A DNA stretch of 64,000 bases from an uncultured archaeon (GTDB lineage Archaea; Altiarchaeota; Altiarchaeia; IMC4; SCGC-AAA252-I15), in the NCBI GenBank assembly GCA_964587725.1, contig CAZPLO010000003.1:1135-65134 (forward strand), read 5' to 3'. Position 1 is the first letter of the stretch. Each line of letters starts with the position of its first letter. The notes below the pieces were generated by a model that was not told the origin of the DNA, made no database searches, and was given only the letters and a program-made list of their open reading frames with translations. Both the position numbers and the translations under genes were made by a program. This document shows positions 3,200-33,452 of this stretch, in pieces.

Positions 3200-3215
3200 G
3201 TTAACAATTGTTAAC
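3200..3215. promoter_or_regulatory. Perfect 16-bp palindrome GTTAACAATTGTTAAC 6 nt upstream of the iscS ATG (candidate operator)
   Basis: Seen directly. Sits between a TTTAATAC TATA-like element and the start codon. The same motif recurs at 6990, 8514, 11158 and 7028. Confidence 0.5.
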
Positions 3216-3249: not shown

Positions 3250-3717
3250 TTACTTAAGAACCACCATGTTGGTGAGCCCCCGCCGTCTGCGCTCCAGGAA
3301 ACGCATGGACTCCAGCTTGTCCAACGTCCTCGTCACCTTCACCTTAGACAACCCGGTCTTCTCCCCTATCTCGCTCTGGAACAACGCCCCACCAGCGTCC
3401 GTTATGAGTTTGTACACCGTCTCCTCGTCGCCGTCCAAGGCCGCCAGCTTCTCAGACCACTGCTCCGACGACTCAGCCCTGAACGGCACGGGCTTGAATG
3501 CAAGATACACTCCAGTCAGCAGGATGAATCCCGCGCCTCCGAGTCCCACGTAGAACATCGGCGGCACCTTGAAATGAACCATGTCGCACGACTCCCCGCA
3601 ATCGCAGGACGCGGAGCTTACGTCACTCAGCATGTTCAGGAACCACACCATGGTGAAGCCCATCACCAACGCCACAGCCACCATCAAATAACCTACCCCC
3701 TGCAATCCAACGTTCAT
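3250..3717 (-). CDS. Membrane-anchored winged-helix (MarR-like) transcription regulator with Cys cluster CDCGESCD
   Basis: Two N-terminal TM segments with the Cys cluster between them. C-terminal ETVYKLITDAGGALFQSEIGEKTGLSKVKVTRTLDKLESMRFLERRRRG winged-HTH. Overlaps the cysS stop by 4 nt. Confidence 0.45.
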   Translation of the reverse strand: MNVGLQGVGYLMVAVALVMGFTMVWFLNMLSDVSSASCDCGESCDMVHFKVPPMFYVGLGGAGFILLTGVYLAFKPVPFRAESSEQWSEKLAALDGDEETVYKLITDAGGALFQSEIGEKTGLSKVKVTRTLDKLESMRFLERRRRGLTNMVVLK

Positions 3718-5087
3718 CGTATCCTCTCTGCGACCGTGCGGCCGCCCACGTCCTTCAAACGGATGCCTTTCTCCAGCAGTTCGTCGCGTATCCTGTCCGC
3801 TTCAACGTATTTTTTCTCAGCCCGCAGCCGCTTGCGCTCCTGAATCAATTTCTTCAACCCGTCACTTAACTCTTCCCCTGTGAAATCGAACCCCAATACG
3901 CAGGCGACTTCATCGAACACCTGCAGGGCATGCTCCACCGACTCGTCGGACTGCTCGGAGAGCATCCCGTTGACGTCCCGCACGGCCTCGAACAACGCCG
4001 CAACCGCCTTGGGCGTGTTGAAGTCGTCGTCCATCGCCTCGGTGAACGTTTCCTTGAACGAGTACATCTGTTCAGCCGCAGTATTGCTCCCTCCGCCTCC
4101 CGCGGACGACAGCGCAGCCCGGAAGTTCCGCAGCCGCTCCACGGCCTTACCAGCCTCCTCCACGAGGCCGCCGTTATAGTCTATCTGGCTCCTATAGTGC
4201 GTCTGCAATACGAACATACGCAGCGCCTCCGCACTGTACTGTTCCAGGAACTCCCGCACCGGCAGTATGTTGCCGAGGCTCTTGCTCATCTTCTCCCCGG
4301 ACGAATACAGGAATCCGGTGTGGAGCCAGTATTTCACGGCCGGCTTCTCCCCAGTCAAAGCCTCGCTCTGCGCTATCTCGTTCTCGTGATGCGGGAAAAT
4401 CAGGTCGAGGGCGCCGCCGTGTATGTCGAACCGGTCTCCCAAGTATTTGCGTGACATAACAGAGCATTCGATGTGCCAGCCGGGGCGGCCGCGGCCCCAT
4501 GGGCTGTCGAAGCCCAGTTCGCTGTCGCCGGACTTCTTCCACAACGCGAAGTCGAGGGGGCTGCGTTTCCGGCCGTCCTGCTCAACCCTGTGTTCAGTGA
4601 GCTCGTCCGTCTTCTGGTTGGAGAGTTTCCCGTAGTCCGGGAACGTCGACACCTCAAAGTACACGTCCCCGCCGGATTCATACGCATGGCCTTTCTCTAT
4701 CAGAGTCTTAACTGCGTCTATCATCTCTTCGATGTTTTCGCTCACCCGCGGGTATGCGTCCGCCTCCAGCAGGTTGAGCCGCCGCTGGTCCTCCAGCGCT
4801 GCTTCCGCGTACTCCGCCGACAGCTTCAGCGGCTCCACACCCTTTTCGGAAGCGCGCTTGATGATTTTGTCGTCGACGTCGGTGACATTCTGTATGTATC
4901 TGACGTCGTAGCCCCTGTAGCGGAGGTACCTGAAGATGGCGTCGAACGCCAGATACGTGCGGGCGTGGCCGATGTGCATCCTGTCATACACCGTCAGCCC
5001 GCACACGTACGCGCGGACCACACCCTCCTCAACCGGCTTGAACTCCTCCGTCTCCCTTGAAAGGGTGTTGTACACGCGCAACGTCAT
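3714..5087 (-). CDS. cysS: Cysteinyl-tRNA synthetase
   Basis: HIGH motif (HIGHARTY), KMSKS (KMSKSLGN), Zn-binding Cys. The track ORF extends to 5132; the internal ATG at 5087 (MTLRVYNTL) is the likelier start. Confidence 0.9.
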   Translation of the reverse strand: MTLRVYNTLSRETEEFKPVEEGVVRAYVCGLTVYDRMHIGHARTYLAFDAIFRYLRYRGYDVRYIQNVTDVDDKIIKRASEKGVEPLKLSAEYAEAALEDQRRLNLLEADAYPRVSENIEEMIDAVKTLIEKGHAYESGGDVYFEVSTFPDYGKLSNQKTDELTEHRVEQDGRKRSPLDFALWKKSGDSELGFDSPWGRGRPGWHIECSVMSRKYLGDRFDIHGGALDLIFPHHENEIAQSEALTGEKPAVKYWLHTGFLYSSGEKMSKSLGNILPVREFLEQYSAEALRMFVLQTHYRSQIDYNGGLVEEAGKAVERLRNFRAALSSAGGGGSNTAAEQMYSFKETFTEAMDDDFNTPKAVAALFEAVRDVNGMLSEQSDESVEHALQVFDEVACVLGFDFTGEELSDGLKKLIQERKRLRAEKKYVEADRIRDELLEKGIRLKDVGGRTVAERIR

Positions 5088-5095
5088 ATTGAATG

Positions 5096-5117
5096 TTAGC
5101 GAGGGGAGGGATTCGAA
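5096..5117. repeat. 22-nt exact copy of the tRNA-Cys 3' end (acceptor 3' strand plus T-arm) in the cysS upstream region
   Basis: TTAGCGAGGGGAGGGATTCGAA occurs at 5096-5117 and 5210-5231. Between the copies is a hairpin, GAATCCGC-TAC-GCGGATTC at 5171-5190. Confidence 0.7.
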
Positions 5118-5211
5118 ATAAGGGCAGGGCACCTACGGTTCCCCGCCCTTATCAACCCTACCCCTCCCTTGAATCCGCTACGCGGATTCGTGCCTCATCT
5201 TCTGGTTGTTT

Positions 5212-5327
5212 AGCGAGGGGAGGGATTCGAACCCTCGGATAATGGCTTGCCGCATGCTTCAGGGCGTTGGAGCCCGTCCGCTTTTTTTTTTGCAGGCCAC
5301 CCCATTAGGCCGCTCTGGCACCCTCGC
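5212..5327 (-). tRNA. tRNA-Cys (anticodon GCA) with an intron of about 42 nt in the anticodon loop (canonical 37/38); CCA not encoded
   Basis: Minus-strand sense: GCGAGGG-UG-CCAG-AGCGGCCUA-AUGG-G-GUGGC-CUGCAA[A8 GCGGACGGGCUCCAACGCCCUGAAGCAUGCGGCA]A-GCCAU-UAUCC-GAGGG-UUCGAAU-CCCUC-CCCUCGC-U. The 7-bp acceptor pairs perfectly. T-loop is UUCGAAU. Anticodon stem GUGGC/GCCAU. U73 discriminator, typical of tRNA-Cys. Folded by hand only. Confidence 0.55.
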
Positions 5328-5346: not shown

Positions 5347-5937
5347 CTATATCACCCATTCGGGTTCCTTGGTGCAGGCGTCGCACGGGTCTTTCAGGCG
5401 CATGTAGCAGCCTTCCATCACCCGGAGCCTGCCCTTCGGGCACACCACGGTGGAGTCCTCGGGTATGTCGTCAACGATGACCGACAACGCGCCGATGCGG
5501 CTGTTTTTCTTCACCGTCACCGGCCCCAGTATCGTTGCCCCCACGCCCACTATCACGTTGTCTTCGAGGGTGGGGTGGCGCTTCTCCCCTTTTTGGTCGC
5601 GCCACCACCCGTGTCCCCCAAGGGTTACGCCGTGGTAGAGCATGACGTTGTCCCCCAGCTTCGCCGTCTCGCCGATGACCACGCCGGTGGCGTGGTCGAT
5701 GAAGAAGTTCCTCCCTATTTCGGCGGCTGGGTGTATTTCCGCGCCGGTGAGGAACCTCCCCAGATACGACAGTGCCCTGGGGATTATCGGAACTCCAAGC
5801 TTATATAATGCGTGGCCCACCCTGTAGACGAGTATCGCCTGCACCCCCGGGTAGAACACCGCCTCCAGGTGGCCGACTCCGCCCTTCAGCGCGGGGTCCT
5901 TCTCATAGGCTGTCTTGAACACGTCGAACATCATCAC
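5347..5937 (-). CDS. cysE: Serine O-acetyltransferase
   Basis: Left-handed beta-helix hexapeptide repeats ([28 protein letters not shown]). Overlaps the cysK stop by 4 nt. Confidence 0.8.
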
Positions 5938-6848
5938 CCCTCATACAACGGCGTCGACAGGTAGCGTTCGCCGGTGTCCGGCAGAATAACCACCACCCGC
6001 TTGCCCTTGCCCAGCCGTTTCGCAACCTGCAATGCAGCCCAGGTGTTCGCGCCGGCTGAAATACCCGCCAACAGCCCCTCCTCCCGCGCAAGCCGTTCGG
6101 AGGTTCTGAAGGCGTCGTCGTTGGACACCAGTATGGTCTCGTCTATGAGCGAGACGTCCAGGATGTCCGGTATGAAGCCCGCGCCGATGCCCTGTATCAT
6201 GTGGGGTCCCGGCTGTCCGCCCGAGATTACGGGCGAGCCCTCCGGCTCCACGGCGATGAACCTCGCATCCGGCAATTCCTCTTTCAGCGCGGATGCGACC
6301 CCCGTTATGGTGCCGCCTGTGCCTACTCCTGCGACGAACGCGTCAAAGGTTTCCACCTCGCGCAGCAGTTCCCGGGCGGTCGTTTCCCGGTGGGCTTTCA
6401 CGTTCGCCTTGTTTTTGAACTGCTGCGGTATGTAGACGTGCGGGTCCTCCGCATCCAGTTCCGCCGCCTTGTCTATCGCACCCTTCATGCCCTTCGCCCC
6501 GTCGGTGAGCACGAGTTCGGCGCCGTAGGCCTTCAGTATCTTCCTCCGCTCCAGGCTCATGCTGTCCGGCATCGTCAGCTTCAGCCGGTAGCCTTTCACG
6601 GCCGCGACCATCGCCAACCCTATGCCGGTGTTCCCTGAAGTAGGTTCGACGATGACGCTGCCTTCGTTCAGCAGCCCCTGCCGCTCCGCCTCCTCTATCA
6701 TGTAGAGTGCTATGCGGTCCTTGACGGAGGAGCCTGGGTTGAAGTACTCCACCTTGGCTATGACCTCCGCGTCTCCTGTTCCTGGCAGCCGGTTAAGTTT
6801 CACGTGCGGCGTGCCCCCGATTCTCCCGATTATGTTGCCGTATATCAT
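5934..6848 (-). CDS. cysK: Cysteine synthase / O-acetylserine sulfhydrylase (PLP-dependent)
   Basis: [14 protein letters not shown] (PLP lysine) and the PTSGNTG loop. 304 aa. Confidence 0.85.
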
Positions 6849-6989: not shown

Positions 6990-7005
6990 CTTAACAATTG
7001 TTAAG
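6990..7005. promoter_or_regulatory. 16-bp palindrome CTTAACAATTGTTAAG, plus a variant TTAACGATTGTTA at 7028-7042, in the divergent region between cysK and the HTH gene
   Basis: Seen directly. Same core as the sites at 3200, 8514 and 11158. Confidence 0.5.
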
Positions 7006-7075
7006 GATATGTAATACTAGTATAAAAACTTAACGATTGTTACTATTTTTAAAGGTTAACGCCGTTAATGTTATC

Positions 7076-8513: not shown

Positions 8514-8527
8514 TTAACAATTGTTAA
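8514..8527. promoter_or_regulatory. 14-bp palindrome TTAACAATTGTTAA immediately upstream of the 4Fe-4S protein gene
   Basis: Seen directly. Confidence 0.5.
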
Positions 8528-11157: not shown

Positions 11158-11171
11158 ACTAACAATCGTTA
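11158..11171. promoter_or_regulatory. Variant palindrome TAACAATCGTTAA about 15 nt upstream of the metY ATG
   Basis: Matches 12 of 14 positions of TTAACAATTGTTAA. It is the reverse complement of the 7028 variant. Confidence 0.4.
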
Positions 11172-11225
11172 AGTCTAATATAAATACTTGTCGCATATTT
11201 TCATGCAAATATGCATAGAATATCC

Positions 11226-16629: not shown

Positions 16630-17907
16630 ATGGCCGAACCAAAAGCGAAGGACCTGATAAAGAAGCTGGACGAAACACCGAAGCCTAAGGTGACGAAGAC
16701 CTGCCTCGCCTACTCCGGCGGACTCGACTCCGCACTGGGCGTGGAGTTCCTGAGGAGAACATACGGCGCCGAAGAAATCGTGCCTGTGATGCTCGACGTC
16801 GGGCAGGGCGACGAGGAAATGGAGGGCGCAGTCGAACGCGCAGAGAAACTAGGCATAAAGCCGATAACCATAGACGTGAAGGACGAGTTCACCGAAGTGT
16901 GGCTGCCGAAGGCGATTAAGGCCAACAGCGACTACAACGGCTACCCGGTGTCGACGTCGATGACCAGGCAGCTCGTCGCCGCCGTAGTGGCGGAGCAGGC
17001 GGTGAAGCACGGCTGCGACTCCGTACTGGAAGGCTGCACAGGAAAAGGCAACGACCAGTTCCGGATGCACAACGTCATCACATTCCTGGCGCCCGGCCTC
17101 CACATACTTCAGCCGGTCCGCGACTTCGACCTCACCCGCGGAGAAGAAGAAATACTGGTGAAGGAGTGGGGCGTCCCCACCAGCGAGAAAATCGCGGGCG
17201 GAGACGACAAGACCATGTGGTGCCGCAGCATAGCGTCCGGTGCGGTGGACCTGAACCAGGAGCTGCCCGAGGACATTTGGATGTGGCTGACGCCGCCCGA
17301 GAAGGCTCCGGACAAGCCGGAGATAATCGAGCTCGAATTCGAACAAGGCGTTCCCGTGTCCATGAACGGGAAGGAGATGAAGCTCGGCGACCTGGTGATG
17401 GGGTTGAACGTCGTCGCAGGCCGCAACGGCATCGGCAAGATAGACATGTTCGAAGACGGCATCATGGACATGAAGAGCCGTGAAATCTACGAGGCGCCAG
17501 CGGCTCACGTGATACTGAAACTGCACAAGGACCTGGAGCAGTGGTGCCAGACAAAGCACGAGATACAGTTCAAGAAGATGGTGGACGCCCGCTGGGCCTA
17601 CATGGTCTACCACGGCGAATGGTACCACCCATTGAAGGCCGATTTGGACGCGTTCATTGACAAGAGCCAGGAGCACGTCAGCGGCAAATACAAGGCGAAG
17701 CTTTACAAGGGCAACATCGACATACTGGAGCGGCACTCCGACTCCGGGCTGTTCAACAAGGAGATGCGCTCCATCAAAACGCGCGGCTACAACCAGCAGT
17801 GGGCGATAGGCGCCACCAAGATAGCCGGGCTGCCGTGGATGATTATGGCGAAGGCCGGCAGAACCTCGAAGGCTACGTCGACCGAGCCCGAACCATCCCC
17901 TGCTTAG
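16630..17907 (+). CDS. Argininosuccinate synthase-family paralog (N-type ATP pyrophosphatase), divergent from canonical ArgG
   Basis: PP-loop AYSGGLDSA, plus GCTGKGNDQFRMH and MKSREIYEAP. 425 aa. Confidence 0.6.
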   Translation: MAEPKAKDLIKKLDETPKPKVTKTCLAYSGGLDSALGVEFLRRTYGAEEIVPVMLDVGQGDEEMEGAVERAEKLGIKPITIDVKDEFTEVWLPKAIKANSDYNGYPVSTSMTRQLVAAVVAEQAVKHGCDSVLEGCTGKGNDQFRMHNVITFLAPGLHILQPVRDFDLTRGEEEILVKEWGVPTSEKIAGGDDKTMWCRSIASGAVDLNQELPEDIWMWLTPPEKAPDKPEIIELEFEQGVPVSMNGKEMKLGDLVMGLNVVAGRNGIGKIDMFEDGIMDMKSREIYEAPAAHVILKLHKDLEQWCQTKHEIQFKKMVDARWAYMVYHGEWYHPLKADLDAFIDKSQEHVSGKYKAKLYKGNIDILERHSDSGLFNKEMRSIKTRGYNQQWAIGATKIAGLPWMIMAKAGRTSKATSTEPEPSPA

Positions 17908-17975: not shown

Positions 17976-19481
17976 ATGGCGAAACTATGGGGAGGACGGT
18001 TCCAGAAGGACTGGAGCGAGAACGTGGAAGACTACCTGCAGTCCGTGGAAGTCGACCGCGAAATGGTGCTGGAGGATATCTGGGGGAGCGAAGCCCACGC
18101 CATCATGCTGGCGAAACAGGACATCATCTCCAACACCGACTTGAAGAAGATACTCACCTGGCTGGAAAAGGCCCGCCAGGATTATATCAGCGGGAAATTC
18201 GTCCTCAGCAAGGGGGACGAGGACGTCCACATGAACGTGGAAAAATACGTGATAAAAGGCGCCGGGCCGGAATACGGCGGCAAACTCCACACGGCGCGGA
18301 GCCGCAACGACCAGGTTCTGACCGACGCCCGCCTCCACATACGGTGGAAGATACTGGACGTGAAGAAGAAGGTAATCGCGTTGCAGAAGGTGTTCCTGAA
18401 GATAGCGGACGGCAACCTGGAGACGGTGATACCCGGGTACACGCACACCCAGGACGCGATGCCCGTGACACTGGCTTTCTGGGCGACCGCGTACGTGAGC
18501 CTGCTGATGCGGGACCTCCGCCGCCTCGACAACGCATACGAGATAGTGGACTTGAACCCGCTGGGCTCCTGCGCCTTGGCGGGGACGTCGTTTAACATCG
18601 ACCGCCGGATGACCGCCAAGCTGCTGGGCTTCAGCGGAGTCCACGTACACAGTCTCGACGTAATAAGCTCCCGCGACTTCATAGCGGAAACCCTCTGCGC
18701 ATTGGCGCTGCTGATGAGCAACCTGAGCAAGCTGGCGGAGGAGATGGTGTACTGGAGCACCTACGAGTTCGGAATCCTCGAACTCGACGACGCATACACT
18801 GCAGGCTCATCTATTATGCCGCAGAAGAAGAACCCCTGCGTGGCGGAGCTGGCCCGGGGTCGCACCGGCCGCGTATACGGCTCATTGATGCAGCTTTTGA
18901 CGATGATGAAGGGCATACCCATGGGCTACAACCGCGACCTCCAGGAGGACAAGCCGCCGCTGTGGAATGCGCTGAAGGTTGTTGAGTCCACGCTCTCGAC
19001 GACCACCGGCATGATTGAGACGATGAAGGTGAACGAGGAACGGCTGGCGGAGCTGTCGGGGGCGAACTTCACCACGGCCACGGAACTCGCCAACCATTTG
19101 GTCCGGGAGCACGGGCTGAGCTTCCGCGAATGCCACCACATAGTCGGCAACCTCGTCGGCGAACTCCACCGGAAGGGCAAGAACTTCATGGAATTCGACG
19201 AAGTCCATGCCATACTGAAAAACCACGGCGTGGAGGTCAGCTTCGACGAGATGCGCACGGTATTCGACCCACGCAAGAACATCCACACCTACCGGAGCCT
19301 CGGCAGCACCTCCCCCAAGGAGGTTGCTAAGATGATAAAGGGCTTCAAGAAGCAGACGGCGGCGAACGTGCGGAAGATTAAGGCTCAGGAGAACCGCATC
19401 GGGAAGGCGGAGAAGAAGACCCAGGCCATCGTCAGGGCCGTGTTGGGCGGCAAAGACATAAGCAAGGTACAGGTAAAATGA
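17976..19481 (+). CDS. argH: Argininosuccinate lyase
   Basis: Fumarate-lyase signature [11 protein letters not shown] and [11 protein letters not shown]. 501 aa with a basic C-terminal extension. Confidence 0.85.
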
Positions 19482-20692
19482 AGAAGAAGATTGTGTTAGC
19501 GTACTCTGGCGGACTGGACACCAGCGTGATACTGAAGTGGCTGATAGACAAAGACTACGACGTCGTAGCGTATATCGCAGACGTAGGTCAGAACGAAGAC
19601 TACGAGGCCGCCAAGAAGAAGGCCCTCCAGATAGGCGCATCCAAGGTGTACATAGAAGACCTCAAGGAAGAGTTCGTCAAAGACTTCATATACCGTGCGT
19701 TGAAGGCTAACGCAATCTACGAGGGCAAGTACCTGCTCGGCACCTCCATAGCGCGGCCGCTGATTGCGAAGCGGCAGATAGAGATTGCGCGGAAGGAAAA
19801 GACGAACGTGGTCGGCCACGGCGCCACCGGCAAAGGAAACGACCAGGTCCGCTTCGAATTAACCTATATGGCGTTGATGCCGGACGTGGAGATTTTCGCG
19901 CCGTGGAAGGACGAGGAGTTTCTGTCCCAGTTCCAGGGCCGCAGCGACATGATAAAGTATGCGGAGGAAAAAGGCATCCCTGTGGAGGCGACTTTGAAGA
20001 AACCATACAGTTCGGACGAGAACGTCATGCACAAGAGCTATGAGGCGGGCGTGCTGGAGGAGCCGGGGAAGCCGCCGTCTGAGGACATGTTCACCATGAC
20101 CGTGTCGCCGAAGGACGCGCCGGACAAGGAGGCCATGGTCTCCGTAACCTTTGAGAAGGGTGTGCCGGTGAAGGTGGAATGCAACGGGGAGGTGAAATCC
20201 AAGCCCCTGGACATACTCCTGTTCCTGAACAAAATCGCGGGCGAGAACGGCGTAGGCCGCATCGACCTGGTGGAGAACCGTTTCGTGGGCATGAAAAGCC
20301 GCGGCGTATATGAAACGCCGGGGTACACGGTGTTGCGTGCGGCGCACCTGGATTTGGAGGGGCTGACCATGGACCGCGAAGTCGTGCACCTCCGCGACAC
20401 GCTTACGCCGAAGATTTCAGAGCTCATGTACTACGGATTCTGGTATGCGCCGGAGATGGACTTCCTGATGGCGGCGGTTGAAAAGAGCCAGGAGCACGTG
20501 TCCGGCACAGTACACCTCAGCATCTACAAAGGCAACGTGATGGTGAAGTCCCGGGAGTCCCAGGAGAGCCTCTACGACCACGACGTCGCCAGCATGGACG
20601 TCCACGGAGGATACGACCAGAAAGACGCGAAAGGCTTCATAAAACTGAATGCGCTGCGGCTCCGCACGTGGGCGACCAAACACGGTAGATAG
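19478..20692 (+). CDS. argG: Argininosuccinate synthase (canonical)
   Basis: [22 protein letters not shown] and [17 protein letters not shown]. The ATG overlaps the argH stop (ATGA). Confidence 0.9.
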
Positions 20693-25787: not shown

Positions 25788-25820
25788 ATAAGAACCTAAA
25801 CCAGCCGTATGCTGTCCAGG
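25788..25820. repeat. 33-bp direct repeat copy 2, covering the aCPSF1 stop
   Basis: Identical to 25106-25138. Confidence 0.8.
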
Positions 25821-27682
25821 TTTCTCGGCGCGGTTGCTTCGTAGCCGAACATGTCGTATAACGTCATGGCGAGGTTGTTTGTTTTGCTGGCTTCACCGTG
25901 CATGATGATCGCCCTCTTGGGTCGTGGATTAATCTTTTTCGCGTACCCCAGCAGCTGCCGGCGGTCGGCGTGTCCGCTGAACCCGTCCACCGTCTTGACG
26001 CCGATGTTCACCTTCAGGCCCTTGGTGCGGCCGTTTTCTTCAATAGCGATTTCGTTCAGCCCGTTCTGTATCCTCCGCCCTAAGCTGCCTTCGGCCTGAT
26101 ATCCTACGAAGGTTATCATGTTCTTGGGGTCATCCGCCCACGCCTTGAAGTATTCTACGCTGGGGCCGCCCGTCATCATGCCTGACGTCGCCAAAACCAC
26201 GCAGGGGTCGTCGCTCTCTATTATCGCCGGCCGCTCCTTGTGCTCCACCTTCTCGAACGCGTCCACGAGGAACGGGTTGTGGCCGTTGAATATCCTGTGT
26301 TTGATGTGCTTCTTCAGATACTCCGGGTAGGAGGTGTGTATTGCCGTCGCCTCCCATATCATCCCGTCCAAATACACGGGAACGTCGAGTTCGCCGTAGC
26401 GGTACGCGTTCTCCAAAACCATCATCACCTCCTGGCTGCGGCCGACGCTGAACACCGGCACCAACACCTTCCCCCCTCTCTTAACCGTCTTCTTTATGGT
26501 GTTTATGAGGAGGCTTTCCGCGTCCCTTCTCTTAGGCTGCGCGTCGTATCTTCCGCCGTACGTCGACTCCATAATCACTGTCTCAACCCGGGGGAAGTCG
26601 TAGTTTGCCGCCTCCAATAATCGCGTGTCCCCGAACTTGAAGTCTCCAGTGTACACGAGGTTGTGTAGTCCCTCTCCCACGTGGAAGTGGCATACGCTGC
26701 TCCCCAGGATGTGGCCCGCATTGTATAACGTCAAGTGTATGTCCGGTGTGATGTCCGCCACCTCCCCGTACTCCAAGGGGATGGTGTGCTTTATCATCTC
26801 CCGCACCTCCTTACTAGTGAAGGGGAGCTCGTTCTGTCCTTTAACTCCTATTTCAACGGCGTCCAAAACCAGCAGAGCCATAAGGTCTCTGGTAGGCTCC
26901 GTGCAGTATATGGGTCCGTCGTACCCGTACTTGTACAGGTACGGTACGAAGCCGCAGTGGTCCAGGTGGGCGTGCGATATCACAACCGCATCCAACTCGC
27001 TTATCGCCAATTTCACGGCGCGGAAGTCCGGGAACCGGTTCGTGTCCTGCGCCGCAACGTTTATGCCGCAGTCTATCAGCACGTTGCTGGCGGGCGTCTG
27101 CAGCAGGACCGAAGAACGGCCGACCTGCTGTGCGCCTCCCAATGGGGTGACGCGTATCCAGTCGCATTCAGCGTCCGGTTTACGGTAAATCTTCTTCCCC
27201 ACGTTTTTGAGTATCTTCTGCCGCTCCTTCGCGTTCTCGAACAAAGTCTTCCGTATGGTTCGGACGGTGTCGGACTGCAGCGGCGGCTTCCTCAGCAGTT
27301 TTGGGTTCCAGTGGGTCGCCTTGGTTATCTCGTCGAGGGTGCTGCCGTGTTTGCCGATGACCAGGCCGAGCTTCTCCGCCTCTATCCTGACTTCCCCGAA
27401 GTATTCGTCGAATTCGATGTCTACGATGTTGGCTTCCTCTGGTATTATCTCCTCAATCATCCGCTTGGCTTCGGCAGGCTCGATGAGTGATTTGGATGTG
27501 CTTCTGACGATGACCCGCTTCTTCAGGGAGGTGGCGAGATTCCGCACTTCGTTGCTGTTCTCCACGAAATACGGCATGTCGTCTGTGTACAGTATGACCT
27601 TCGGTCCTTCCACGTCGACCTTGGCTATTTTGCCGTCGGGCGCCGTCTCCTCTACGATGCTCTGTATCTCCTTAAATTCCAT
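25796..27682 (-). CDS. Archaeal CPSF1-type beta-CASP ribonuclease (KH domains plus MBL/beta-CASP; FttA termination factor)
   Basis: 628 aa. N-terminal KH domains, HAHLDHCG metallo-beta-lactamase motif and a beta-CASP region. Confidence 0.85.
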   Translation of the reverse strand: MEFKEIQSIVEETAPDGKIAKVDVEGPKVILYTDDMPYFVENSNEVRNLATSLKKRVIVRSTSKSLIEPAEAKRMIEEIIPEEANIVDIEFDEYFGEVRIEAEKLGLVIGKHGSTLDEITKATHWNPKLLRKPPLQSDTVRTIRKTLFENAKERQKILKNVGKKIYRKPDAECDWIRVTPLGGAQQVGRSSVLLQTPASNVLIDCGINVAAQDTNRFPDFRAVKLAISELDAVVISHAHLDHCGFVPYLYKYGYDGPIYCTEPTRDLMALLVLDAVEIGVKGQNELPFTSKEVREMIKHTIPLEYGEVADITPDIHLTLYNAGHILGSSVCHFHVGEGLHNLVYTGDFKFGDTRLLEAANYDFPRVETVIMESTYGGRYDAQPKRRDAESLLINTIKKTVKRGGKVLVPVFSVGRSQEVMMVLENAYRYGELDVPVYLDGMIWEATAIHTSYPEYLKKHIKHRIFNGHNPFLVDAFEKVEHKERPAIIESDDPCVVLATSGMMTGGPSVEYFKAWADDPKNMITFVGYQAEGSLGRRIQNGLNEIAIEENGRTKGLKVNIGVKTVDGFSGHADRRQLLGYAKKINPRPKRAIIMHGEASKTNNLAMTLYDMFGYEATAPRNLDSIRLV

Positions 27683-32786: not shown

Positions 32787-33452
32787 TTATAATTCCTTGG
32801 TCCAGCCGACGCCCCCTTCCTCGGTCGCGTTCGGGTGTTTCTCCCGTATTTCAAGCCGGTGCTGGGTGCAGTGCGTCGGCACAATCAGTTTCAGGCCGTC
32901 GAGTGCGCGGTAGTCGTCGAAGCCGTGCAGGCCGCCCACGAGGCCGTACAGTCTGCCTCGTTCGCGGGCCGCTTCGAGTATCTGTCCGACCCCCGAATGC
33001 GAGCACCCGGTCAACGCAACCACTCCCTCCTTGGTTTCCAATGCGAGGCTCTGTTCCATGATAACTCCCTTGTATTCTCCCGCCAGTTCGCCGGTCGAGT
33101 ATGCGTTGTCGGATACTTTCACCGGCCCGCCGACTTCCACCAGTTCCGCGTGCCTGCCTATCTCACCCTTCAAGTGGTCGCTGAAGGATTTCGGCGCATA
33201 CACCCTCACATCTGCGTTGTTGAGCACGCAGGTGAGTCCGCCGGTGTGGTCCCAGTGGTCGTGGCTGAGGACGACGGCGTCTACTTCACTGATGTCTTTG
33301 CCGAGCGCCCGCATGTTGTGGAGTAGGTCGCTGCCCTTCCACCCCGTGTCGAAGAGAATATTTTCCCCGGCCTCTATGAGGCAGCTGAAGCCCCAGCCCT
33401 CTCGCAACCCATCCTTCAATACGGTGTTGTCGTAGACGATGGTCAGCTTCAT
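32787..33452 (-). CDS. Metallo-beta-lactamase-fold hydrolase
   Basis: LSHDHWDHTGG (HxHxDH). Confidence 0.65.
   Translation of the reverse strand: MKLTIVYDNTVLKDGLREGWGFSCLIEAGENILFDTGWKGSDLLHNMRALGKDISEVDAVVLSHDHWDHTGGLTCVLNNADVRVYAPKSFSDHLKGEIGRHAELVEVGGPVKVSDNAYSTGELAGEYKGVIMEQSLALETKEGVVALTGCSHSGVGQILEAARERGRLYGLVGGLHGFDDYRALDGLKLIVPTHCTQHRLEIREKHPNATEEGGVGWTKEL

Follow-up and report, generated by a model that had tools for sequence, protein, structure and literature searches.

A 64,000-nucleotide (nt) stretch of an uncultured Altiarchaeota genome (contig CAZPLO010000003.1; the whole stretch is called the window here) carries, just ahead of the cysteinyl-tRNA synthetase (CysRS) gene cysS, a second copy of the last 22 nt of its tRNA-Cys gene. 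We believe that this second copy (copy 2) is probably the old 3′ end of tRNA-Cys, displaced by an insertion at the T-loop of the tRNA gene. RNA folding further predicts that copy 2 pairs with an inverted partner in the inserted DNA to form an acceptor-like helix, which may be processed in the manner of a tRNA. We give this overall explanation, which joins a displaced tRNA end, an insertion at the T-loop, and processing of the hairpin, a probability of roughly 0.5, and it is the best one that we have; the direction of the event, co-transcription, and processing are what we infer in it.

The repeat was examined at the level of the whole window. The 22-mer TTAGCGAGGGGAGGGATTCGAA has two exact matches on the plus strand and no third match in the 64 kb, even with up to 3 mismatches allowed. 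No match was found in 100 shuffles, and none is expected by chance. The period of the repeat is 114 bp, with 92 nt between the two copies. The initial annotation of this DNA had noted a 22-nt duplication 114 bp apart, with about 92 bp between the copies, and all of this held; the transcription error that it allowed for is excluded, as the repeat is exact in the sequence. Read on the tRNA strand, the 22-mer is made up of UUCGAAU (the full T-loop), CCCUC (the 3′ T-stem strand), CCCUCGC (the 3′ acceptor strand), the discriminator U73, and AA. The repeat therefore takes in the entire 7-nt T-loop and not half of it, as first described, and also U73 and two trailer bases. Identity between the copies breaks off sharply at tRNA nt 54, where 22 of 22 matching positions give way to no detectable similarity. 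The spacer between the copies showed no significant similarity to the tRNA body (p 0.15-0.4 against shuffles), has no second copy in the window, and has no homology to the spacers of relatives. The tRNA-Cys gene upstream scored 45.7 bits against an Rfam gathering score of 29 and is the single tRNA found in the window.

Copy 2 is separated from the ATG at 5087 by 8 nt, and its U73 lies 10 nt before that codon. The evidence supports this ATG, rather than the annotated GTG at 5132, as the true start of cysS. From the ATG, the CysRS N terminus (MTLRVYNTLSR) aligns with the N termini of its relatives. The public annotation (P0001, 472 amino acids [aa]) begins at the GTG, which brings the tRNA fragment into the translated protein, and nothing in the homologues corresponds to the 15 residues that this adds. 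Copy 2 thus lies within an unconserved 15-codon N-terminal extension of the maximal cysS open reading frame (ORF). The initial annotation had likewise placed it just 5′ of the probable cysS start and inside the extension, in agreement with both the coordinates and the N-terminal homology.

Evidence for displacement came from related loci. The closest CysRS proteins are 54-66% identical and come from sources named Candidatus Altiarchaeota or Altiarchaeales. In two of these loci (L082 and L085), an intron-less tRNA-Cys occupies the entire gap between cysE and cysS, beginning 7-8 nt past the cysE stop codon (19 nt in the window). The tRNA 3′ end lies 5 nt from the cysS ATG in L082, 9 nt in L085, 11 nt in L091, and 22 nt in L096, and in a Micrarchaeota metagenome-assembled genome (MAG; L008) tRNA-Cys stands 12 nt ahead of cysS. 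In L085, the tRNA end beside cysS is the identical 22-mer (...TTCGAATCCCTCCCCTCGCTAA-AGATAAC-ATG), to be compared with ...TTCGAATCCCTCCCCTCGCTAA-CATTCAAT-ATG for copy 2. Relative to cysS, copy 2 has the place that the intact tRNA 3′ end has in all of L082, L085, L091, L096, and L008, and for this reason it is probably the old tRNA 3′ end. A comparison with related genomes had been proposed at the outset as a check on the repeat. It gave uninterrupted sites in these five loci, in relatives that are distant (at most 66% CysRS identity) and of which three others have unrelated spacers. Among the matches listed in a scan of genome contigs with CysRS, which are distant relatives only (at most 50% identity), tRNA-Cys adjoined cysS in none of about 75 other cysS loci. 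As far as we found, the literature searched has no description of the cysE-tRNA-Cys-cysS packing in Altiarchaeota or of tRNA-Cys-cysS in the Micrarchaeota MAG.

From this arrangement, we propose that one event put 114 bp at the first T-loop base of tRNA-Cys. These 114 bp would consist of fresh tRNA nt 54-73 and AA, completing the tRNA, followed by 92 nt of unrelated DNA, and the old tRNA 3′ end would have been pushed downstream while still attached to cysS. A regenerated tRNA gene with a displaced fragment is the principle by which islands in tRNA genes are found (Islander, PMC4383910), and T-loop crossover with displaced 3′ fragments is a common island pattern in tRNA genes (PMC4383910). The T-loop is a recognised crossover sublocation, as are the anticodon loop and the T/acceptor junction (PMC4383910; bioRxiv 10.1101/2020.11.02.365908); the citing passage of PMC4383910 attributes the sublocations to Williams 2002. 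The locus in the window has this geometry, with an intact tRNA-Cys (45.7 bits) and a 22-nt fragment in direct orientation that starts at nt 54 and extends 2 nt beyond U73. We consider integrase action a possible but somewhat unlikely cause. With no mobile element remaining, a duplication during replication or repair, started at the T-arm inverted repeat, is an equally good candidate for the event.

We then considered the RNA between the tRNA end and the cysS start. Its predicted minimum free energy (MFE) is -60 kcal/mol, against -38.8 ± 3.8 kcal/mol in shuffles (z of -5.6). Two hairpins, hp1 and hp2, account for the fold. The first (GAAUCCGC-GUA-GCGGAUUC) had been described as a perfect hairpin at 5171-5190; the hairpin with its 8-bp stem is present, but in the fold it ends at 5189. 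The longer hp2 joins the spacer to copy 2. In its basal stem, a spacer arm (AGGGAGGGGUAGGG, 5156-5169) pairs with copy 2 nt 61-73. Seven positions are acceptor-like (G-C72, G.G71, G-C70, A-U69, G-C68, G-C67, and G-C66; six of seven paired, with one G.G mismatch), and five base pairs are T-stem-like (G-C65, a bulged U, A-U64, G-C63, G-C62, and G-C61). Above these is an inner stem of 13 bp (5117-5153), recovered both by folding and by an inverted-repeat search. The lowest 12 bp of hp2 are thus predicted to mimic the acceptor/T-stem stack of tRNA-Cys with U73. The duplex of spacer arm and copy 2 has an energy of -23.2 kcal/mol, which is reached by 0.025% of the 20-mers in the window. Only 0.018 such segments would be expected in the spacer, so the inverted partner is unlikely to be due to chance. 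The spacer includes an imperfect inverted copy of the tRNA end, which was not in the initial annotation.

Other identities for the spacer and hp2 were considered and rejected. A dispersed repeat or miniature inverted-repeat transposable element did not fit the spacer, which is single-copy in the window, lacks terminal inverted repeats, and shares no homology with the spacers of relatives. H/ACA small RNA, C/D small RNA, and bulge-helix-bulge-type processing were set aside for hp2, in which, by eye, the internal loop is 2 × 6 nt and there is no K-turn, D box, or bulge-helix-bulge; Rfam returned noise only. Other Rfam families, the T-box included, gave no match above the gathering score at the locus, and the subthreshold matches were noise of the microRNA-precursor hairpin type. 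The spacer hairpins were not found in IMG/VR viral contigs. A 19-codon ORF lies within hp2 on the minus strand at 5096-5155, from TTG (5155-5153) to TAA (5098-5096), and encodes MIRAGNRRCPALISNPSPR. Ahead of this ORF is GGAGGGG, one of its codons is for Cys, and its stop is 8 nt from the cysS ATG; in GC-rich DNA, such an ORF could well have arisen by chance.

Relatives, too, have hairpins built from tRNA-Cys fragments. Some 80 nt upstream of the tRNA, both L091 (about 2311-2328) and L096 (reverse strand, about 1291-1306) carry a second copy of its first 16 nt (GCGAGGGUGCUGGAGU), an orphan 5′ fragment that spans the acceptor strand through the D-loop. A 17-nt block with the 16-nt fragment is fully conserved between the two loci, while the adjoining spacer is near random. 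The partner of nt 8-16 of the fragment lies downstream and reads ACUCCAGCA in L096; in L091 it is CCUCCGGCA, which retains the pairing via U.G. The partner strand of L096 runs on to ...UUCGCUAA, which copies the tRNA 3′ end. By these sequences, the L091/L096 hairpin looks conserved rather than decaying. In L090, L171, and L096, hairpins of about 37 nt stand just past the cysE stop codon. In the base of each, the 5′ acceptor strand of the genome's own tRNA pairs with a close match to the 3′ acceptor strand of that tRNA, with U added. An example is L090, with GCGGAGA...UCUC-GCU for a tRNA with GCGGAGA/UCUCCGCU. Across the tRNA flanks of 9 loci, with at most 1 edit per strand, 4 own-acceptor pairs were observed against 0.18 expected. 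The 4 pairs belong to three loci (the window, L090, and L171), two of them being in the window with the same 3′ partner, and L096 has two looser examples. A MAFFT alignment of the hairpins of about 34-38 nt from L090, L171, L096, and L167 was attempted for covariation, and they were not alignable. Taken together, the sequences indicate that cysE/tRNA-Cys/cysS junctions of Altiarchaeota are rich in hairpins made of local tRNA-Cys fragments.

A separate observation concerns the cysS leaders of L167 (1434-1458) and L171 (1466-1489). These have a 25-nt block in common (GAAACGTTGACGAAAGAGAAAGAAA, 96% identical) that can pair with a pyrimidine run (CTTTCTCTTTC) directly 3′ of the tRNA, giving it two alternative partners. 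The block may be a different leader element of that lineage.

How might hp2 act? The gene order is cysK-cysE-tRNA-Cys-cysS, all on the minus strand. Upstream of cysK there is a Shine-Dalgarno sequence (GAGGTGATC); in the upstream sequence examined for cysS, there is none. The neighbouring genes have TTTAWA-type TATA boxes, whereas cysS has a weak TTATTT alone, at the junction of spacer and copy 2, and on this basis a promoter of its own was considered and dropped. Because cysS has neither a Shine-Dalgarno sequence nor a good TATA box, and because the tight relatives L082 and L085 leave no room for a promoter, we infer that cysS is co-transcribed with tRNA-Cys, probably together with cysK and cysE. 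RNase P and tRNase Z would excise tRNA-Cys from this transcript, and the tRNase Z cut past U73 would make the 5′ end of the cysS mRNA. The tight cysE-tRNA-Cys-cysS packing thus suggests that the cysS mRNA is normally released by tRNA processing, which in the relatives would leave a leader of 5-22 nt. In the window, a cut at the real tRNA would leave a structured leader of 124 nt. If the acceptor-like helix of hp2 were cut likewise, with RNase P acting at its 5′ base, a second cut just before the AUG would restore a short leader. We regard hp2 as a processing signal only tentatively, and tolerated junk is at least as likely a description of it.

In plant mitochondria, tRNA-like elements have been accepted or proposed as signals for RNase P and tRNase Z, and so have simple stem-loops that resemble an acceptor (PMC1920247). 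In Haloferax volcanii, tRNase Z cleaves a tRNA-like element ahead of the 5S rRNA (as cited in PMC4326828). These t-elements and hp2 have in common a tRNA-like helix exactly at the edge of the neighbouring transcript, which is predicted here as 7 bp plus 5 bp with U73 10 nt before the AUG. They differ in that hp2 is a long hairpin with no cloverleaf and includes a fragment of the adjacent and still-present tRNA gene. Similarly, in the mitochondrial tRNA punctuation model (PMC3790967), a tRNA lies in a polycistronic unit and its processing would also set mRNA ends. We can extend our proposal to a family of tRNA-Cys-fragment hairpins in Altiarchaeota, each made of an orphan 5′ or 3′ end and an inverted partner that form an acceptor stem. 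Such hairpins would punctuate the cysK-cysE-tRNA-Cys-cysS transcript as processing signals or CysRS-binding sites, setting the ends and expression of the flanking cysteine-pathway mRNAs, with the copy 2 hairpin serving cysS. We consider this wider model speculative and rather unlikely as a whole.

Several results weigh against a displaced tRNA end that now works as a processing hairpin. No genome closer than about 66% CysRS identity was found in the collections searched, among the matches listed, and the CysRS tree is star-like and weakly resolved, with polarity undecided and L085 grouping with the window; our reading of how old the event is, and of which way it went, is therefore based on parsimony. 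In L090, L167, and L171, tRNA and cysS are separated by 98-117 nt of unrelated sequence without a displaced 3′ fragment, L087 and L170 are without a tRNA at cysS, and the ancestor may already have borne a spacer. The window offers no agent for the insertion, with a recombinase domain in 0 of 40 ORFs of at least 200 aa and in none of the called neighbours, which are ordinary genes of sulfur metabolism (cysK, cysE, cysS, a MarR-like gene, NifS, and NifU) and include no cargo. The exact 22-mer, as an attP-like sequence, was not found in IMG/VR viral contigs. As to hp2, it is known from one sequence only, the T-loop bases of copy 2 fall in an internal loop and not in a closed T-loop, and U73 is paired with A in the MFE structure. 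The tRNA model RF00005 recognised no cloverleaf on 5096-5211, with no match even at E ≤ 10.

The principal alternative is that the repeat is a neutral scar. The element would have been a virus, a plasmid, or an island whose integrase, of the tyrosine or SSV type, acted at the T-loop, with its attP giving the new tRNA 3′ end. Nearly all of it would later have been lost by deletion, perhaps because selection favored a renewed connection of cysS to the operon, leaving a functionless attL, 92 nt, and attR. An integrase att-site scar was one of the two origins first proposed for the repeat, and its geometry, its start at the T-loop, and the uninterrupted relatives stand. The regenerated tRNA with a direct 3′ fragment from the T-loop to just past the tRNA follows the Islander principle (PMC4383910; bioRxiv 10.1101/2020.11.02.365908), the empty-site state is seen in L082 and L085, and the 5′ fragment of L091 and L096 ends in the D-loop, which is another reported sublocation. 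However, only 92 nt separate the copies, the window holds no integrase or element DNA, and viral contigs yielded no attP-like sequence. A clean deletion to 92 nt that spared both att copies would be a coincidence, and a like coincidence would be required in relatives (a 64-nt insert in L091). A neutral scar also does not account for the inverted tRNA-end copy in the spacer, the acceptor-pair hairpins of relatives, or the retention of the orphan fragment of L091 and L096 over long divergence. We therefore think this unlikely, although it is the rival that we take most seriously. In a further search, a second copy of the 22-mer was present in 0 of 75 metagenome loci with the tRNA-end pattern, almost all of which were unrelated, L096 being the sole useful locus. 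A decayed tandem duplicate is less probable still. Here, tRNA-Cys would have been doubled at a 114-bp period, with the upstream copy remaining functional and the downstream copy losing its D and anticodon arms to become a roleless hairpin pseudogene. At 72 nt, hp2 is about as long as an intron-less tRNA-Cys (71-75 nt in relatives), and it retains both acceptor strands (GGGAGGG / CCCUCGC) and the T-loop. Similarity does not extend over the whole length of a tRNA, though; beyond the 22-mer, all that remains is the 5′ acceptor strand, matched at 6 of 7 positions. Uniform decay does not yield a 3′ part identical at 22 of 22 positions beside a body that is like random sequence. Moreover, the tRNA covariance model has no match on hp2, and the 114-bp period is shorter than the 116-nt intron-containing gene, so that a later intron gain or loss would be needed.

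The other origin first proposed was a tRNA-Cys mimic through which CysRS regulates its own mRNA. In Escherichia coli, the thrS operator mediates translational autoregulation by tRNA mimicry, and it mimics the anticodon arm. Among the major identity elements for CysRS are U73 and the acceptor helix, and the E. coli enzyme is able to charge minihelices of tRNA-Cys, which counts in favor of such an operator. When uncharged tRNA-Cys is scarce, CysRS would bind the hairpin through the acceptor helix and U73 and block the translation start in the manner of thrS. The position may be suitable, with an acceptor/T-stem mimic carrying U73 directly upstream of the start codon of the cognate synthetase gene and hp2 ending 10 nt ahead of the AUG. 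As noted above, this mimic is predicted and unlikely to be chance; it is built from copy 2 and the spacer arm, however, and not from the 5171-5190 hairpin as had been suggested. Both hairpin loops are GUA and not GCA, so there is no anticodon mimic. The mimic hairpins of relatives are mostly upstream of the tRNA beside cysE and not before cysS, and the tightly packed relatives have no room for an operator. These points make a CysRS operator improbable, and more so than a tandem duplicate. Compared with the thrS operator, the locus shares an RNA resembling the cognate tRNA beside the start codon, in what would be the synthetase leader. It differs in mimicking the acceptor/T-stem helix alone, with no GCA loop, in its archaeal host, and in the lack of a Shine-Dalgarno sequence before cysS, and the mimicry here is predicted. 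Bacillus and other Firmicutes have a T-box-controlled cysE-cysS operon, which likewise links cysteine synthesis and CysRS genes and ties them to tRNA-Cys. In the window, by contrast, no T-box or other Rfam family matched, and the operon contains the tRNA gene itself and not a tRNA-sensing leader.

Since the window comes from a MAG, an assembly artefact or chance repeat also had to be weighed. In the Logan assembly of run SRR7048219, the locus is split over two contigs, L086 and L081. One contig holds cysK-cysE-tRNA-copy 1 and continues into the spacer to about 5145; the other runs from 5165 through the remaining spacer and copy 2 to cysS. Both repeat junctions are reproduced in these independently built contigs, which overlap by a 21-mer within the spacer that is unique in the window. 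It counts against our explanation that the Logan assembly breaks inside the spacer, and the join therefore rests on the deposited contig and the 21-nt unique overlap. Both contigs end in the very stable and GC-rich 5′ half of the long hairpin (about 5145-5165). Loss of coverage at this hairpin is a plausible cause of the break, and strain heterogeneity is another candidate. With each junction in an independent contig, the overlap unique, and no chance match expected, we consider an artefact or chance repeat very improbable.

The displaced tRNA fragment as such is a known kind of feature. Genomic islands and proviruses in tRNA genes (attL/attR) similarly combine an intact tRNA, a direct 3′ copy from the T-loop to just past the end, and uninterrupted relatives. 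In contrast to them, the copies here are 92 nt apart, an integrase, cargo, and an attP partner are all lacking, an inverted att-like copy lies within the insert, and the site is in an operon, directly before an essential gene. What is unusual is that the insert is tiny and element free, that it sits between a tRNA and its cognate synthetase gene in a cysteine operon, that the inverted partner in the spacer rebuilds a predicted acceptor-like helix, and that comparable tRNA-fragment hairpins appear in distant relatives. Were it no more than a scar, the repeat would still document, cleanly if on a small scale, an insertion into a tRNA gene that is single, essential, and part of an operon. The finding also corrects the annotated start of cysS, from which translation at present runs through the tRNA fragment. 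A functional hairpin would give an archaeal case of mRNA ends set by tRNA-derived elements, as in organelles, and it would physically link tRNA-Cys maturation, cysteine synthesis, and CysRS expression.

Table 1. Positions of the repeat copies, hairpins, and cysteine genes in the 64,000-nt window
Feature	Position	Strand	Basis and remarks
cysS, cysteine-tRNA ligase, 457 aa from ATG 5087	3714..5087	-	Translation; Altiarchaeota CysRS homologues 54-66% identical; N-terminal alignment
Copy 2 of the 22-mer	5096..5117	-	Exact match; probable displaced old tRNA 3′ end, 3′ strand of hp2
hp2, long hairpin of 72 nt	5098..5169	-	RNA fold; inner inverted repeat
Spacer, 92 nt, holding hp1 and the 5′ half of hp2	5118..5209	-	Unique in the window
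hp1, perfect 8-bp hairpin GAAUCCGC-GUA-GCGGAUUC	5171..5189	-	RNA fold
Copy 1 of the 22-mer	5210..5231	-	tRNA nt 54-73 and trailer AA; exact match, place in tRNA alignment
tRNA-Cys(GCA), discriminator U73	5212..5327	-	Rfam RF00005, model positions 1-71
cysE-like serine acetyltransferase, hexapeptide repeat	5347..5937	-	Translation; Pfam Hexapep on called orthologues
cysK-like cysteine synthase (PALP), first gene in cluster	5934..6848	-	Translation; Pfam PALP

The tRNA-Cys gene of the window has an insertion of about 42-44 nt at position 37/38 (about 5248-5289), which is an archaeal-type intron. It is because of this intron that ARAGORN in bacterial mode found no tRNA at the locus. The intron can be aligned in part with the tRNA-Cys intron of L091. 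The two introns (42 nt in the window; about 20 nt in L091, at about 2433-2452) have the motifs AACGCC and CGGCAA in common, and six other relatives are without the intron. By eye, only a relaxed bulge-helix-bulge can be drawn for it.

The cysteine gene cluster is also accompanied by a 14-bp perfect palindrome, TTAACAATTGTTAA, of which five copies occur in 11 kb against 0.03 expected. Three copies are exact (3201-3214, 6991-7004, and 8514-8527), and two have 2 mismatches (7030-7043 and 11159-11172). All five stand immediately ahead of sulfur or cysteine genes, namely a NifS-like gene, cysK together with its divergent helix-turn-helix gene, a Fer4 gene, and the gene of a Cys/Met pyridoxal phosphate enzyme. 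The cysK gene is thus downstream of such palindromes, and none of the five copies is in front of cysS. From its sequence and placement, the palindrome looks like the operator of a local sulfur regulon.

Elsewhere in the window, two argininosuccinate synthase genes (16630-17907 and 19478-20692) lie on both sides of an argininosuccinate lyase gene. An FttA/aCPSF1-type beta-CASP ribonuclease is encoded at 25796-27682, and a short metallo-beta-lactamase ORF is located at 32787-33452.

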